Assembly: GCA_034522495.1 (NCBI GenBank)
Contig: JAXHLG010000002.1
Location: 165,583 to 229,582, forward strand
Direction: 5' to 3'
From: Candidatus Moraniibacteriota bacterium
Lineage (GTDB): Bacteria; Patescibacteriota; Minisyncoccia; Moranbacterales; DUUL01
DNA: 64,000 nt
Shown: in pieces, positions 44,610-49,760 of the stretch
Position numbering within the stretch: position 1 is the stretch's first letter
How the letters are laid out: each line of letters begins with the position of its first letter
Position numbers and translations under genes: made by a program
Notes under the pieces: generated by a model
Seen by the model: only the letters and a program-made list of their open reading frames with translations
What the model was told of the DNA's origin: nothing
The model's database searches: none

Positions 44610-45199
44610 TGATATTGACGTTTCGATGATTTGAAAATTTCAACTTTGCGGATTGGTTACGGACTAATATTTCCGCAGAATTAAAATGTTAATTTTTAGC
44701 CCTCAGGGGGTATTTGTTAAATGACGGAAACCAAAAAAGCCATAAGTAAAAATTCAAGTTAAGACGGTTTTGCAGTTTTCGTGCTGTCAAAACCGCATCA
44801 AGCGGTTTTTTTGTTGGGATTAATAGGTCTGACTTTGTAAAGTTCTAATTTTTTAAATTTTTGAAGGGTTCAGGAAGAAGGAGTTAACAGCTTAACTTTT
44901 TCTTCTTGGATCTTTGCTTGGGCGGCGGGTCTGAATAGCGCCAAGCGGAGAGGAACATTGAAAACAGAATAAAGTAGGTAAAATAAATTAAACTTAAGCT
45001 TTTGATAATAATAACAAATTCAATCTTTGTTATTTGCCAGTCAAAAGCAGCGGTGCTCAATCAAGGCATATGGTGGATACCTTGACTGAAGCAAGCGATG
45101 AAGGACGCGGCAGTCTGCGATATGCCTCGGGGAGGTGACAAGCAACCTTTGATCCGGGGATTTCCGAATGCGGCAACGCAGCGTTGTAAACCAGCGCTA

Positions 45200-45355
45200 C
45201 GCGCTGTTTCACAACGAATTCAAAAGTCAAAACTCAAAAGTCAAAACTATGGTGTCCCTGTGGGACGATTATTATATAAATCATCCCGAGAATTCGGGAT
45301 ACCATTAGCTTTGCGCTTTGAGTTCTAAGCTTTGAGTTCGCTGCGAAGCAGCGCG
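45200..45355 (+). other. 23S insertion 1 (about helix 10)
   Basis: Long hairpin; core shared with insertions 4, 5 and 6. Confidence 0.85.
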
Positions 45356-45410
45356 GGCTTACCCGAGGAACTGAAACATCTTAGTACTCGGAGGAAAAGA
45401 AAACAATATA

Positions 45411-45571
45411 TGCCGGTGCTTCGCACCGGAATGTCTAATTCCTAATTCCTAATTCCTAATAAAATTTCAAATGTTCAATGTCCAAATATTTGGATATTGT
45501 TAATTTCGTGTTTGTCATTTGTTTGGAAATTGGAAATTGGAAATTGGAAATTCCGGCGCGGAGCGCCGGTG
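45411..45571 (+). other. 23S insertion 2 (about E. coli position 228-230)
   Basis: Hairpin with (AATTCCT)n and (TTGGAAA)n arms. Confidence 0.85.
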
Positions 45572-45613
45572 TGATTCCCTAAGTAGTGGCGAGCGAAAGG
45601 GGAAGAGCCTAAA

Positions 45614-45776
45614 CCGATGCGCAGCATCGGAAATTCTAAGCTCTAATCTCTAAACTCTAAACAAGTTCAAATTTTACAAATTCAAAACTCAAAACAGCAT
45701 TGTTTTGTTATTTGGATTTTGGAAATTGTTTAGGATTTAGGATTTAGGATTTAGAGTTTCCGCTGCTGCGCAGCGG
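45614..45776 (+). other. 23S insertion 3 (about helix 15/16)
   Basis: Hairpin with TCTAA-type and (TTTAGGA)n arms; related to insertions 8 and 10. Confidence 0.85.
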
Positions 45777-46084
45777 GGTTGCGAGGCAATCATTCTTATT
45801 TATTTAGGGTGGAGTTATAAAATTTGTTAATAGTTGAATACCTTTGGAAAGAGGAACCATAGAGGGTAACAGTCCCGTAAACGAAATTAGCAAATCTCCA
45901 TGATGATTGTTCTCAAGTAGGATGGAGCCGGTGAAACTCTGTCTGAATCCGGGAGCCCTATACTTCCAAGGCTAAATATTGCTTCAGATCGATAGCGAAC
46001 CAGTACTGTGAAGGAAAGGTGAAAAGAACCCCTACAAGGGGAGTGAAATAGAACTTGAAACCATATGCTTACAAAGAGTAGGAG

Positions 46085-46261
46085 CTCGTGTCTCACTAGC
46101 GTTCGACACGATTAAAACTCAAAACTCAAAACTCAAAACGTTGGTGTCCCTGCGGGACGATTATTATATAAATCATCCCGAGAATTCGGGATACTGATGG
46201 ATTTGCACTTTGAGTTCTAAACTTTGAGTTTTATCAGTGGCGAGCGGCAGCGAGACACGGG
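46085..46261 (+). other. 23S insertion 4 (helix 25)
   Basis: Lies between GGAGC and GTGACTGCGT; (CTCAAAA)n arm. Confidence 0.85.
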
Positions 46262-46363
46262 TGACTGCGTGCTTTTTGCAGAACGAGCCAACGAGTTAAT
46301 TTATACGGCTGGCCTAAATCATTTTATGATGAAGGCAGAGTGAAAGCGAGGCTTAACCGCCGT

Positions 46364-46584
46364 TCGTTCGTATCTCATTGCATTCGATACAAACTCAATC
46401 TCAAAAGTCAAAACTCAAAAGTCTCAGCCCAAGGCTGATCCGCCTTTGGCGGAAAAACTATGGTGTCCCTGCGGGACGATTATTATATAAATCATCCCGA
46501 GAATTCGGGATACCGATGGATTTGCGCTTTGAGTTCTAAGCTTTGAGTTTGAGCGAAGTATCGAGTGAAGCGAGATACGAGCGA
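46364..46584 (+). other. 23S insertion 5 (about E. coli position 654)
   Basis: 151-bp core (46400-46550) identical to 47146-47296. Confidence 0.85.
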
Positions 46585-47108
46585 TTGTCGTATAAATTAG
46601 ACCCGAATCCGGGCGAGCTATATATGAGCAGGGTGAATGCTGAGTAAAATCAGCAGGAGGCCCGCACCCACGCGTCGTTCAACTCGCGGGGATGACTTGT
46701 GTATAGAGGAGAAATTCCAATCGAGCTCGGCGATAGCTGGTTCTTCTCGAAATAGCTCTAGGGCTAGCGTCAGGTTAGGGACTTTATGTCCCGCTTACTA
46801 ACAGGAGGTAGAGCTACTGAATGAGTAGTCGGGCTTTGCCTAGGCTATTCAATTAAACTCCGAATGCCTGTTAGCCAATCCTGGCAGTCAGAACCTGGGC
46901 TCTAAGGTTCAGGCTCAAAAGGGAAACAGCCCAGACCGCCACCTAAGGCCCCCAAATCTATACTAAGTGGAAAAGAAGGTGAAACTACTGAGACAACTAG
47001 AAGGTTGGCTTAGAAGCAGCCATCCTTAAAAGAGTGCGTAATAGCTCACTAGTTCAGTGGTTTTGCGTCGAAGATGTAACGGGGCTAAGTATAGTGCCGA
47101 AGGTGCGG

Positions 47109-47330
47109 ACGCGTTCATATCTCATTGCATTCGATATGAACTAAACTCAAAAGTCAAAACTCAAAAGTCTCAGCCCAAGGCTGATCCGCCTTTGGCGGAA
47201 AAACTATGGTGTCCCTGCGGGACGATTATTATATAAATCATCCCGAGAATTCGGGATACCGATGGATTTGCGCTTTGAGTTCTAAGCTTTGAGTTTAGCG
47301 AATATCGAGCGTAGCGAGATATGAGCGCGT
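47109..47330 (+). other. 23S insertion 6 (helix 45)
   Basis: Lies between GAAGGTGCGG and GGTAGAGAAGCGTTC. Confidence 0.85.
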
Positions 47331-47504
47331 GGTAGAGAAGCGTTCTGTTTGTTATGAAGCTCACGGCGCGAGCCGGGGTGGAACGAACAGAAGTGAGAAT
47401 GTTGGCATGAGTAACCGCAATACGGGTAAGATCCCCGTACGCCGAAAGTCCAAGGTTTCCTGGGCGATGACAATCATCCCAGGGTTAGTCGGTCCTAAGG
47501 CAAG

Positions 47505-47685
47505 CCCCTGGCGTTTGCTGCGCAAACGCAATGATCAAGGAAACAAGAAACAAGGGTACAAACAATATATCAATAACCAATGTATAAATTTCAAACTGTT
47601 TGGGATTTGTTAATTGTAATTTTGAATTTGTTTGTTATTTGTCTCTTGTATCTTGTAATTTGCGTTTGTGTAACGAACGCTGGGG
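47505..47685 (+). other. 23S insertion 7 (about helix 52)
   Basis: (ACAAGAA)n and (TCTTGT)-type arms; resembles intergenic 3383..3545. Confidence 0.85.
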
Positions 47686-48024
47686 GGTAGTCGATGGACA
47701 GCAGGTTAATATTCCTGCACTGCTATGTTATTCGATGGAGTGACGCATCCTAGTAGCTCTTGCCGGTTATTGGATTCCGGTAGGCATTTTGAGGTGGTCG
47801 GATAGGTAAATCCGTCCGGCAATACACCAAGAAATGTCTCGACGCTTGCGCTTGCGCAAGTTAAGTGGAGTGAGCAGGGTGCCGGGAAAAACTTCTAAGG
47901 CTAGTAGCGTAGCAACCGTACCGCAAACCGACACAGGTAGACAGGGCGAGTAGCCCAAGGCGAACGGGAGAACCTTCGTTAAGGAACTCGGCAAAATAGC
48001 GTCCGTAACTTCGGGATAAGGACC

Positions 48025-48184
48025 GCCGGCCAATGCTTCGCATTGGAAATCCTAAACTCTAGTCTCTAAATTCTAAACAAATTAAAATTCCAAAGTTCAA
48101 GACTTTATTGTTTTGTGCTTTTCGGTGATTGTTTAGGATTTAGGATTTTGAAATTAGGGCTTCCGATGCGGAGCGGCGGTCGGC
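48025..48184 (+). other. 23S insertion 8 (helix 63)
   Basis: Follows TTCGGGATAAGG; hairpin related to insertions 3 and 10. Confidence 0.85.
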
Positions 48185-48623
48185 CGCAGCTAAAGATGCC
48201 TGGCGACTGTTTACCAAAAACACAGGTCTCTGCAAACCCGCAAGGGGATGTATAGGGGCTGACGCCTGACCAGTGCCGGAACGTTAACGGGAGAGGTGCA
48301 AGCCAATCCCCGAAGCGCCGGTGAACGTCAGCGATAACTATAATCGTTCTAAGGTAGCGAAATTCCTTGTCAGCTAATTACTGACCCGCATGAAAGGCGT
48401 AACGACTAGGCAACTGTCTCAACGAAGGACCCGGTGAAATTGCAATGGGGGTAAAGATGCCCTCTACCTACGGCAAGACGAAAAGACCCCGTGGAGCTTT
48501 ACTATAACTTGGCATTGCGTTCGAGATTATGCTGCCGAGCATAGGTGGGAGGCTTTGAAGTCCCGATTCCGGTCGGGATGGAGCCAACAGTGGAATACCA
48601 CCCTGCATGATTTTGAACGCTAA

Positions 48624-48736
48624 CCTTGGTCTGTTATTTGCGCTTTTTAGTGCATGATAATTAGATTAAGTAAATTTCACGATTAAAATCTAATTGTCTG
48701 CACAAGATCAAAAAGAGCTCAGATACCAGACCAGGG
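48624..48736 (+). other. 23S insertion 9 (about helix 79)
   Basis: Extended hairpin before GGACAGTGCCTGGTGGGTAGTTT; lacks clear tandem repeats. Confidence 0.75.
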
Positions 48737-49305
48737 ACAGTGCCTGGTGGGTAGTTTATCTGGGGCGGATACCTCCTAAAAAGTAACGGAGGTGCTCACC
48801 AAGGTCGGCTAGCTCCGGATGGAAATCGGAGCGATAGGACAAAACCAAAAGCCGGCTTTACTGAAAGACTCATCCGTCGATCAGTTGCGAAAGCAGGATT
48901 TAGTGAACCGACTGTCGCTTATAGTAGCGCAGAAGATCAGCAGACAAAAGTTACCCCGGGGATAACAGGCTAATAGCGCCCAATAGTTCACATAGACGGC
49001 GCTGTTTGGCACCTCGATGTCGGCTCATCTCATCCTGGGGCTGCAGCAGGTCCCAAGGGTTTGGCTGTTCGCCAATTAAAGAGGTACGCGAGCTGGGTTC
49101 AAACCGTCGTAAGACAGGTTGGTCTCTATCTGCCGTAGGCGTTGTTGCTTGAGAGGATTCATTCTTAGTACGAGAGGACCGGAATGAGTGCAACCTCTGG
49201 TGTACCAGTTGTTCCTGCCAAGGGCACGGCTGGGTAGCTATGTTCATTCGGGATAACCGCTGAAAGCATCTAAGCGGGAAGCCCACCTCAAGATAAGGCA
49301 ACCAA

Positions 49306-49472
49306 CCGTGCATAGCACGGAAAATCTAAATTCTAATCTCTAAATTCTAAAATAAATTCCAATTTTTAAATTCAAAATTAAAAACTGTCTAGTTTGTAAT
49401 TTTGTTATTAGAATTTTGGTAATTGTTTAGGATTTAGGATTTTGAAATTTGGAAATTCCGTGCTATGCGCGG
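49306..49472 (+). other. 23S insertion 10 (helix 98)
   Basis: CCGTGCATAGCACGGAA...TTCCGTGCTATGCGCGG hairpin. Confidence 0.85.
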
Positions 49473-49760
49473 CTATAGTTTCCTGGAAGAAGACCAGGTT
49501 GATAGGCTTCAGGTGTAAGTGTGGTAACGCATTTAGCCGAGAAGTACTAATAAACTAAGGAGCATCACTGCTTTTGTTCTCAGGAATCTCCATATTTTAT
49601 GTGGCGATTACGGAGAACTGTGACTGGCAATCAAGAAAGATTGAAAGAATTATTGACTCCAATGCATTCCCATAATATATTTAAAGTGCATTAATAATAA
49701 GATATTGAAGGAGGGTGTACTTTTTATGCAAAACCCTCCTCGTTAACCGGAAATAGACTT

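Follow-up and report, generated by a model that had tools for sequence, protein, structure and literature searches.

The 23S rRNA gene of a small-genome, uncultured bacterium is enlarged by ten ORF-less hairpins, which are probably copies of non-autonomous, non-coding, REPIN/MITE-like hairpin repeats kept at tolerated helix tips. The inserts fall into families that are shared between helices of the gene, recur elsewhere in the genome and change occupancy between species of one genus.

The enlarged 23S rRNA gene and its insertion sites

The gene lies in a window of 64,000 nt (the whole stretch of DNA analysed) and is colinear with the bacterial LSU model from end to end (RF02541 positions 1–2925, Rfam search). 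Removal of the ten hairpins, which sum to 1740 nt, from the 4521 nt leaves a 2781-nt core, in agreement with a sequence-only reading that had described a gene of ∼4.5 kb enlarged by ten hairpins. The G+C content is 27–45% in the inserts versus 50% in the core. Insertion sites were mapped in a MAFFT alignment of this gene with the E. coli 23S sequence (L032:533-3435) and the full-length 23S genes of 17 relatives, and extra sequence was located at the same ten sites that the earlier reading had named (Table 1). The helix names of the sites (H10, H25, H45 and so on) are those that we take to apply from the standard 23S numbering, and insert bounds are the hairpin bounds set in the analysis. The genome contains one 23S copy, which is unlinked from the 16S gene, and uL30 was not found in it. 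Besides 23S, the gathering-score Rfam matches in the window are the 5S gene, which has a normal size, and one tRNA.

The Rfam search bears on the question of whether the inserts are self-splicing group I or II introns, which is scarcely credible. Relatives have larger inserts at E. coli ∼1916, 1930, 1950 and 2592, and positions 1917, 1931, 1952 and 2593 are listed as endonuclease-encoding insertion sites in a survey that also describes a bias of group I introns toward the 3′ part of 23S (PMC11270868). The gene analysed here, however, has no insert at such sites. Its inserts are located at helix tips, away from conserved functional sites, and are plain hairpins of 107–233 nt that are too small for a catalytic core. 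No intron family reached the gathering score anywhere in the window, and insert 5 gave nothing beyond chance at E-values up to 10.

A wrong threading of genomic repeats into the 23S gene during assembly is very improbable. The inserts are repeats, inserts 5 and 6 are longer than the k-mer of a short-read assembler, and the contigs of a DNA run (X1) break within repeats. The same contigs nevertheless link each hairpin to unique core sequence and cross the core–insert junctions with 0 other letters (for example, the zero-mismatch spans 45274–45551, 45524–46031, 46165–46429, 46485–47175, 47428–47676 and 47689–48232), a support that is not fully independent because X1 is possibly the source sample. 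Moreover, the core keeps the order of the LSU model throughout, the separate assemblies of relatives have inserts at the same sites, and one and the same family A element, without sequence differences, is found at H45 in five metagenome contigs.

Table 1. Positions in the window of the rRNA genes, the ten inserts and their conserved modules (E. coli 23S numbering for sites)
Feature	Coordinates	Strand	Site	Family	Length (nt)	Folding z-score	Remarks
23S rRNA gene	45050..49570	+			4521		RF02541, 2347.1 bits, model positions 1-2925
Insert 1	45207..45348	+	H10 tip, after ~143-148	A	142	-8.3	
Insert 2	45409..45573	+	after 228		165	-10.9	
Insert 3	45614..45776	+	H15/16, after 285	B	163	-11.4	
Insert 4	46084..46263	+	H25, after 547	A	180	-11.7	
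Insert 5	46358..46590	+	after 655	A	233	-10.1	
Insert 6	47104..47334	+	H45, after 1173	A	231		
Insert 7	47505..47689	+	H52, after 1363	C	185	-8.2	
Insert 8	48025..48187	+	H63, after 1709	B	163	-8.8	
Insert 9	48627..48733	+	H79, after 2211		107	-6.5	
Insert 10	49306..49476	+	H98, 2787-2805	B	171	-13.2	
Family A twin-hairpin core	45251..45303	+	tip of insert 1	A			GGU + hairpin A + AU linker + hairpin B + ACC
Family A core, other copies	46143-46195, 46462-46514, 47208-47260			A			located by regex + alignment
Nested twin mini-hairpin module	46425..46453	+	insert 5				second copy at 47171-47199, in insert 6
5S rRNA gene	49887..50000	+					RF00001, 77.3 bits; 316 nt downstream of 23S

Architecture of the hairpin units

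Each of the ten inserts folds into a single long hairpin (ΔG of −38.9 to −104.9 kcal/mol), with z-scores of −6.5 to −13.2 when 100 dinucleotide shuffles per insert serve as the reference. The base of the unit is a GC-rich clamp, and each clamp half is a small palindrome. The arms are long, rich in A/U and made up of 6–8-nt tandem repeats; G is scarce in the 5′ arm and C in the 3′ arm. In insert 2, the GC clamps are self-palindromic and the arms consist of 7-nt tandem repeats. Family A units add a conserved twin-hairpin tip, and both small hairpins of this core show two-sided changes at pairs in an alignment of ten copies from five sources. The insert stems are interrupted every few base pairs by a bulge or a G·U pair. 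The sense fold is more stable than the antisense fold in 11 of 15 elements and less stable in the other four, and the sense folds contain 101 G·U pairs versus 67 in the antisense folds. Comparison of the orthologous elements at 655 in this genome (G000) and a congener (G001) yielded 0 compensatory changes, two one-sided changes and six broken pairs; selection on pairing is thus not evident at that site.

Kinship between inserts and dispersal in the genome

Inserts 5 and 6 contain exactly 151 identical bases (46400–46550 and 47146–47296), as the sequence-only reading had noted, and this block sits inside 219 nt at 95.4% identity. Inserts 1, 4, 5 and 6 match at 87–95% over 90–135 nt. The core that they had been claimed to share has four genome-wide matches, all of which are inside the 23S gene in these four inserts, and the nested twin mini-hairpin module has 17 genome-wide matches at up to five mismatches, some of them counted on both strands. 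The claimed relationship of inserts 3, 8 and 10 was also confirmed, with 71–78% identity over 134–165 nt.

Insert-related sequence was found at 113 BLAST loci in the genome. The loci outside 23S at 50 bits or more number 21 for insert 7, 14 for insert 3, seven for insert 10, six for insert 2, five for insert 8 and two each for inserts 1 and 5; for inserts 4, 6 and 9 the search gave no dispersed relative at this threshold, and for insert 9 no relative was found in this genome. No locus reached 50 bits in any of the 20 dinucleotide shuffles of every insert. The dispersed matches are only 68–80% identical and rest partly on short tandem repeats. Zero ORF overlap was observed for 35 of the 43 dispersed loci of at least 60 nt, as judged by a crude map of ORFs of at least 80 aa.

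Copies in stable RNA genes comprise ten hairpins in 23S, four in the unlinked 16S gene (2075 nt) and two in RNase P RNA. One RNase P RNA hairpin lies within P12 and is the nearest relative of insert 2, and the other follows model position 315, ahead of the conserved motif of the 3′ strand. The 16S and RNase P genes, which represent ∼1.1% of the non-ORF DNA, contain five of the 48 non-23S loci (binomial P = 1.7e-4). A scan of genome contigs placed three of four family A loci outside rRNA genes and one in 23S at 655. The 17 family A loci in metagenomes include eight in 23S (seven at H45 and one at H10) and nine without an rRNA match.

The earlier proposal of a mobile hairpin copied between helices is supported by the 95% copy over 219 nt, the duplicates and turnover described below, and this dispersal. 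The data do not establish its second part, targeting of surface helices; most members of families B and C are located between long ORFs, and the pattern is explained equally well if helix tips merely tolerate the units.

Turnover among close relatives

In three species of one genus (G000, G001 and G002), a given helix can hold different families and a given family can occupy different helices. The 23S cores of G000 and G001 are 93.7% identical. Insert 5 is orthologous to the G001 element at 655 (83% over 251 nt). The nested twin mini-hairpin is found in both inserts 5 and 6 but not in the G001 orthologue, and the H45 occupant of G001 is a hairpin unrelated to insert 6; H45 of G000 thus gained its copy from 655 after the split. 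To judge from these sequences, insert 6 is a recent copy of insert 5.

Other sites exhibit similar exchanges. The family A core is located at H10, H25, 655 and H45 in G000 and at 655, H63 and H79 in G001. An element of the G001 H63 type is found in G002 both at H63 and adjoining E. coli position 529, which was read as H25. Insert 4 and the G001 H25 element have the same basal clamp, as do, in their own case, the H52 elements of G000 and G001, with a different distal part within each pair, and insert 7 is 87.8% identical to the G002 H52 element over 164 nt. Site 228 is empty in G001, G007, G014 and G030, and G001 has a plain 21-nt stretch without an insert at H98. An enlarged H79 is present in 17 of 18 aligned full-length 23S genes and is lacking only in G030. 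Intragenic duplicates were detected in six of ten relatives that were compared with themselves, and the H10 and H25 elements of G001 are identical over 147 nt (100%). An origin of all ten inserts as old, mutually unrelated elements is contradicted by the copy shared by inserts 5 and 6, the turnover between congeners and the dispersal.

The same comparisons make it improbable that the tips grew in place by tandem-repeat slippage, with convergent low complexity and occasional gene conversion instead of transposition. Slippage would account for the tandem units of the arms and for the many between-family matches that are only 70–78% identical. The clamps kept at H25 and H52 under differing distal parts are as in-place remodelling predicts, and the lack of a target-site duplication and of conserved ends is also in its favour. 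However, the complex 53-nt twin-hairpin core and the 151-nt identical block are common to helices with non-homologous flanks. Sites 228 and H98 are empty in a sister species, and filled sites hold complete units with their own clamps. Homologous units are found at other loci (0 with shuffled queries) and, in other lineages, outside rRNA genes.

Copying and candidate enzymes

In the preferred reading, hairpin units would be copied at the DNA level into new places, and copies would survive only in places that tolerate an additional helix, namely intergenic regions and the solvent-exposed helix tips or linkers of stable RNA genes. Copying may tentatively be attributed to transposition in trans, possibly by one of three RAYT/IS200-like Y1 transposases whose ORFs (Y1_Tnp) are present in the genome. 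With NCBIfam REP_Tyr_transpos, one of these ORFs reaches 87.3 bits (cut-off 80); two REP families, with 32 and 31 copies, flank it. Site 228, the sole filled site with clean empty alleles, displays no target-site duplication and therefore fits an IS200/RAYT-type rather than a DDE-type insertion. The profiles of the two RAYT-flanking REP families did not match the inserts (best E-value of 0.039, confined to simple-repeat arms), and no RAYT-like match was found in the insert-rich G001 and G002 genomes (88% and 92% complete). Neither conserved termini nor a target motif was found across families, and the clamp pattern is rare (three exact genome matches), unlike a true REP seed.

Predicted fate in the transcript

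In the transcript, each hairpin would form a long duplex stacked on the helix that hosts it. Duplexes of about 50–90 bp are the usual substrates of RNase III, which is encoded in this genome (PF14622, 145.7 bits). On balance, RNase III is predicted to excise the hairpins without religation, which would give a 23S rRNA in up to eleven pieces. It is doubtful that the same elements instead stay in the mature RNAs (23S, 16S and RNase P) as bacterial expansion segments, uncut by RNase III. For retention, seven of the ten sites (H15, H25, H45, H52, H63, H79 and H98) coincide with what we take to be eukaryotic expansion-segment positions, and excision of the two RNase P RNA hairpins would yield a three-piece ribozyme. 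The interrupted stems and the near three-letter alphabet of the arms, which limits mispairing with the core, point in the same direction, and such bacteria are reported to have RNase P RNAs with large extended helices (PMC8172020). Retention is opposed by the encoded RNase III and the duplex lengths, by the quick turnover between congeners, which suggests no ribosomal role, and by the report that rRNA-gene insertions in such bacteria are removed from transcripts (Brown et al. 2015, as cited in PMC11270868 and PMC9297842). In the RNA runs examined, matches were confined to conserved core pieces of other organisms.

Comparison with known systems

Eukaryotic and Asgard-archaeal expansion segments add extra helices at H25, H45, H52, H63, H79 and H98 with the core structure untouched, and the inserts described here occupy the same surface helices. 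Expansion segments are retained and vertically inherited, whereas the occupants here turn over within a genus and would probably be excised. Rickettsia palindromic elements, mitochondrial GC clusters and double-hairpin elements in rRNA variable regions are short, hairpin-forming repeats spreading within one small genome. Palindromic mobile elements of this kind survive inside genes, including rRNA genes, with the additional hairpin protruding at the surface. They belong to other lineages, differ in sequence and are likened here by description, and the hairpins in the present gene are far longer and have tandem-repeat arms.

The IVSs of bacterial 23S genes (Salmonella, Yersinia, Campylobacter, Leptospira and Coxiella) are also extended stem-loops, which replace the H25 or H45 tip, and their processing enzyme is the RNase III encoded here. 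IVSs are described as mostly ORF-less and sporadic among relatives, with supposed horizontal spread (PMC11270868; see also PMC4990558 and PMC2801512). They differ in number (one or two per gene versus ten at ten sites) and are excised, whereas excision is predicted here; moreover, the present families are also found in 16S, RNase P RNA and dozens of other loci.

REPINs and REP sequences with RAYTs (Bertels and Rainey 2011, PMC3116915; PMC3337134) resemble the present units in that two inverted small palindromes around a spacer form a long hairpin. They are also non-autonomous and mostly intergenic, and this genome has a RAYT flanked by REP repeats. In contrast to REPINs, the clamps of the rRNA hairpins have no conserved high-copy seed, and the inserts do not match the REP profiles. 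REPINs are described as extragenic, and a single literature search pairing RAYT or REPIN with 23S rRNA returned none reported within rRNA genes.

The short, ORF-less, non-intron insertions of CPR/Patescibacteria (Tsurumaki et al. 2024, PMC11270868; Brown et al. 2015, as cited there) likewise occur in small genomes with unlinked 16S and 23S genes and no uL30 found, and many are below 250 nt and match no intron model (64 of 66 inserts are short in Ca. Saccharibacteria). The survey calls the short inserts uncharacterised and probably IVS-like. Unlike the present analysis, it does not sort them into repeat families and covers rRNA genes alone; its main text never uses the word 'repeat', and its supplementary tables may list similar cases. 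Ten inserts per gene is not exceptional for the group, with up to 16 per rRNA gene reported (PMC11270868). The present gene points to the short, long-unexplained rRNA-gene insertions in such bacteria being copies of mobile hairpin elements.

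Ten hairpin insertions within the 23S rRNA gene

The 23S rRNA gene is present in one copy in the source genome (1.33 Mb in three contigs, 94.6% complete) and is followed 316 nt downstream by a normal 5S gene. The gene was aligned with the E. coli 23S sequence (L032:533-3435) and 17 full-length 23S genes from relatives. The alignment resolves the extra 1.7 kb into ten blocks (inserts 1–10, numbered 5' to 3') after E. coli positions 143–148, 228, 285, 547, 655, 1173, 1363, 1709, 2211 and 2787–2805, the same ten sites that had been proposed in a sequence-only reading of the window. 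From standard numbering, we take the helices of inserts 1, 3, 4 and 6–10 to be H10, H15/16, H25, H45, H52, H63, H79 and H98, respectively. Every block folds into a single long hairpin of 107–233 nt with a predicted energy of −38.9 to −104.9 kcal/mol and a z-score of −6.5 to −13.2 against dinucleotide shuffles. The inserts sum to 1740 nt with G+C contents of 27–45%, and the remaining core comprises 2781 nt with a G+C content of 50%.

The kinships among the inserts claimed in the sequence-only reading were reproduced. Inserts 1, 4, 5 and 6 (family A) are 87–95% identical across 90–135 nt, and a block of 151 bases is identical in inserts 5 and 6, inside a 219-nt alignment of 95.4% identity. Inserts 3, 8 and 10 (family B) are 71–78% identical across 134–165 nt. 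Insert 7 represents family C. Contigs from DNA run X1, which may be the source sample, link the hairpins to unique core sequence with zero mismatches, and the assembly is further backed by similar inserts in metagenome contigs and in the relatives' independent assemblies.

An identity as group I or group II introns was rejected: no Rfam intron model reached its gathering score in the window, and insert 5 gave no match up to an E value of 10. No other known RNA family was found in the inserts by the same searches. The ten hairpins are located at helix tips or linkers and contain no intron core, matching the definition of an intervening sequence (IVS) as an extra stem-loop at the tip of a surface helix.

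Locations of the rRNA, RNase P RNA and repeat features (C2, contig containing the window at C2:165583-229582)
Feature	Location	Strand	Details
23S rRNA gene, complete	window 45050-49570	+	Rfam bacterial LSU model 1-2925, 2347.1 bits
16S rRNA gene, 2075 nt	C2:912880-914954	−	~700 kb from 23S, unlinked
RNase P RNA, ~730 nt	C2:~138755-139485 (L037, outside window)		76.9 bits vs gathering score 100
RAYT-like gene	C2:230315-230821, ~730 nt past window end		NCBIfam REP-associated tyrosine transposase, 87.3 vs cut-off 80 bits
REP1 copies, 23-nt palindromic	window starts ~31156, ~41082, ~55506, ~60087	−, −, +, +	32 copies, <=3 mismatches
MITE-like element, ~202 bp, terminal inverted repeats	window 4310-4511, 11363-11565, 14285-14486, 61594-61796		
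Lone near-perfect hairpin, 164 nt	window 36879-37042		dG −81 kcal/mol
Tandem array, period 103 nt	C2:1230518-1231270 (L035, outside window)		7 copies

Anatomy of the hairpin units

As read from the sequence, most units begin and end in a basal GC-rich clamp, each half of which is a small palindrome, with the two halves mutually complementary. The 5' and 3' clamps of inserts 2, 3, 8 and 10 are self-palindromic and mutually inverted, and fit both a long-hairpin fold and a fold of two small hairpins. The clamps are not alike from insert to insert. Inward of the clamp, long A/U-rich arms are built from tandem units of 6–8 nt; across ~50 nt, the 5' arm of families B and C contains 0–4 G and the 3' arm 0–4 C.

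In the 53-nt tip of family A, two small hairpins joined by an AU linker lie between GGU and ACC. Both small hairpins exhibit changes on both sides of their pairs (ten copies from five sources), which favors the twin-hairpin fold over the alternative preferred by RNAfold. Inserts 5 and 6 additionally contain a nested module, the twin mini-hairpin. A similar twin mini-hairpin is observed in the tandem array L035, where every unit also includes a copy of the neighboring minus-strand tRNA-Asn gene's 3' half; an intact tRNA-Asn lies at the end of the array.

Dispersed copies and insertions in other stable RNAs

The ten inserts, used as BLAST queries against the source genome, identified 113 loci. 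Loci outside the 23S gene were counted at 50 bits or more, with 20 dinucleotide shuffles of each insert as the control. Insert 7 yielded 21 such loci, followed by inserts 3 (14), 10 (7), 2 (6) and 8 (5) and inserts 1 and 5 (2 each); inserts 4, 6 and 9 yielded none, and the shuffles gave 0 in every case. The dispersed copies fold into the same type of hairpin, and 35 of the 43 dispersed loci of at least 60 nt have zero overlap with ORFs on a crude ORF map. No enrichment near tRNA genes was observed, as one of the 43 loci lies no more than 300 nt from a tRNA (expected, 2.9), a count in which the ARAGORN parsing may have missed the tmRNA. The tmRNA is of normal size and has a family C hairpin immediately upstream.

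An exact-seed inverted-repeat finder caught just two of the ten 23S hairpins and was therefore left out of any hairpin census. The lone 164-nt hairpin in the window has no kinship with the rRNA insert families. The 8-kb contig C1 appears to duplicate the start of C2 (C2:1338-9300), with inverted-repeat candidates recurring at a constant offset; the probable cause is an overlap in the assembly or a duplicated end.

The 16S rRNA gene holds four hairpins of this kind, two at E. coli positions 64–243, one at 432–478 and one at 1114–1174. In the RNase P RNA, P12 bears a hairpin close to insert 2, and an oppositely oriented hairpin of family B is inserted after model position 315, ahead of the conserved 3' strand. 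These two inserts, with ~120 extra nt in the P15–P17 region, bring the RNase P RNA under its gathering score, so standard covariance-model annotation would miss it. SRP RNA was not found in the source genome. With the ten of the 23S gene, the three stable RNA genes accommodate 16 hairpins altogether. Of the 48 non-23S loci, 5 are located in the 16S or RNase P RNA gene, together ~1.1% of the non-ORF DNA (P = 1.7e-4); the 23S copies were left out of this test because the 23S inserts were the queries.

Evidence for movement between helices within the genus

In relatives of the same order, the 23S gene measures 2996–4449 nt and the same ten sites are patchily occupied. The congener G001 has a 23S core identity of 93.7% with the source genome. 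At position 655, G001 carries an orthologue of insert 5 (83% across 251 nt) without the nested module. The H45 hairpin of G001 is unrelated, and that of the source genome is a 95% copy of insert 5, module included, which dates the copying into H45 as recent. Positions 228 and H98 are empty in G001, and its H25 and H52 hairpins have the same clamp as in the source genome with different distal parts. Family A cores are found at 655, H63 and H79 of G001.

In the third congener, G002, an element of the G001 H63 type occupies H63 and a site next to E. coli position 529, which is read as H25. The H52 hairpin of G002 is close kin of insert 7 (87.8%), and an element of the G001 H15 type occurs at three or four other places. 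Intragenic duplicates are present in six of ten self-compared relatives, and H10 and H25 of G001 are 100% identical across 147 nt. The sequence-only reading had held that hairpins are copied between helices, which is supported by the different occupants in congeners and by the genome-wide dispersal of the families. The comparison of the relatives' 23S genes did not reveal a set of ancient, vertically inherited and mutually unrelated inserts.

The family A core matches 9 of 201 genomes of the order at E <= 0.001, and matches longer than ~60 nt are confined to the source genome (four places), G001 (two) and the relative G061 (one). In other lineages, family A was found outside rRNA genes in G061; a scan of genome contigs gave three such loci, G061's own record included. 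Among 17 metagenome loci of family A, eight are in 23S genes (seven at H45 and one at H10) and nine have no rRNA match; several adjoin apparent tRNA ends, as judged by eye from the sequence.

Larger inserts of 240–490 nt are found after E. coli positions ~1916, 1930, 1950 and 2592 in six relatives (G005, G021, G011, G020, G023 and G028; 23S loci L013, L019, L008, L010, L011 and L018). These are probably endonuclease-bearing group I introns, and the source genome has none of them. The H79 insert of another relative, G003, measures 944 nt.

Candidate copying mechanisms

Position 228 allows a clean comparison between empty sites (relatives G007 and G014) and the filled site. The inserted sequence is a whole unit with its own clamps and without a target-site duplication. 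A DDE-type MITE has terminal inverted repeats and such a duplication; the lack of a duplication counts against this class and is compatible with single-strand transposition of the IS200/RAYT type (RAYT, REP-associated tyrosine transposase). A separate ~202-bp MITE-like element is present in 28 full-length genomic copies with 87–100% identity, none inside rRNA genes, a striking load for a 1.3-Mb genome.

The source genome contains three Y1_Tnp ORFs, one of which is the RAYT-like gene past the window end; an Atlas look-up returned the same REP-associated tyrosine transposase name for it. This gene is flanked by two REP families, REP1 and REP2, which number 32 and 31 copies in the genome, respectively. 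The REP1 copies change strand along the chromosome. REP1 and REP2 often adjoin dispersed hairpins, with which they have a CAAAAGT-type arm repeat in common and similar small GC hairpins; by sequence likeness, these features may offer a lead to a tie between the REPs and the inserts. The nhmmer profiles of REP1 and REP2 gave a best E value of 0.039 against the 23S, 16S and RNase P RNA genes, in simple-repeat arms. The inserts were thus not assigned to a REPIN with a cognate RAYT flanked by the same REPs. A REPIN defined by a high-copy conserved seed was also rejected, given that the clamps vary and that the pattern of the 5' clamp in inserts 2 and 8 has only three exact matches in the genome.

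RAYT-like matches were obtained in 22 of the 31 genomes searched and exceeded the cut-off in five. They follow the insert load untidily: none was found in G001, with a 23S gene of 4024 nt, or in G030, G014 and G022, with short genes. Since the REP profiles miss the inserts and the search of these genomes found G001 and G002 to have no RAYT-like gene, mobilization of the rRNA hairpins by the RAYT is a doubtful proposal.

Fate of the hairpins in RNA

RNase III is encoded in the source genome (region C2:556783-557175), and duplexes of such length are normal RNase III substrates. According to Brown et al. 2015, cited in both PMC11270868 and PMC9297842, such bacteria remove the insertions of their rRNA genes from the transcripts. 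Based on these three points, the leading reading, held with slightly better than even confidence, is that the hairpins would be cut out by RNase III without religation.

The sense strand has 101 G·U pairs against 67 in the antisense strand and is the more stable in 11 of 15 elements; this modest G·U excess and the greater stability suggest that the RNA fold matters. Compensatory change in orthologous hairpins was weak or absent, with none in the pair at position 655.

In a further reading, transposase-mobilized hairpins find a safe harbour at solvent-exposed helix tips of the 23S, 16S and RNase P RNAs and stay in the mature molecules. This combined reading is considered improbable. If true, the ribosome would possess fast-evolving, species-specific expansion segments made by transposition, a living model for the origin of rRNA expansion segments.

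Word shares were 0.79 and 0.77 in DNA runs X1 and X2, respectively, and 0.13 or less in the RNA runs. Contigs from RNA runs X8, X11 and X14 are short conserved pieces. Insert-spanning joints in RNA contigs have other letters between the two sides and are therefore ordinary helices of other organisms. The locus provides a system for distinguishing an 11-piece 23S rRNA from hairpins kept as bacterial expansion segments, with RNase III and the three RAYT-like transposases as candidate enzymes.

Comparison with known systems

The host displays the traits of the candidate phyla radiation (Patescibacteria), namely a small genome, unlinked rRNA genes, a divergent RNase P RNA and no uL30 (PF00327) found at 94.6% completeness, and these features agree with published descriptions (PMC9297842, PMC8172020). 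Lui et al. 2021 (PMC8172020) describe large helix extensions in RNase P RNAs from this group. Tsurumaki et al. 2024 (PMC11270868) report insertions in 82% of the 23S genes of these bacteria and a maximum of 16 in one gene, and ten inserts per gene is in itself not exceptional for this group. In that survey, 64 of 66 Saccharibacteria inserts are short, and short non-intron inserts without ORFs are left "uncharacterized" and "probably" IVSs; its main text does not discuss repeats, and the word "repeat" occurs 0 times there. A literature search, mostly outside subscription journals and supplements, found no report in which short rRNA inserts are sorted into repeat families of the whole genome, none of REP or REPIN elements inside rRNA genes and none that combines these observations.

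Short ORF-less inserts form the uncharacterized remainder in rRNA-insertion surveys of candidate-phyla bacteria. The RNase P RNA, brought under its gathering score by inserts, calls for caution in rRNA-based surveys and covariance-model annotation. To our knowledge, the source of rRNA intervening sequences has been an open question since their discovery. The present locus offers a concrete, testable answer, in which the inserts belong to hairpin repeat families of the same genome, shift between helices within a genus and also occupy 16S rRNA and RNase P RNA. These IVS-like inserts belong to hairpin repeat families spread across the genome. They constitute no new category; they are of known kinds and new in this membership.
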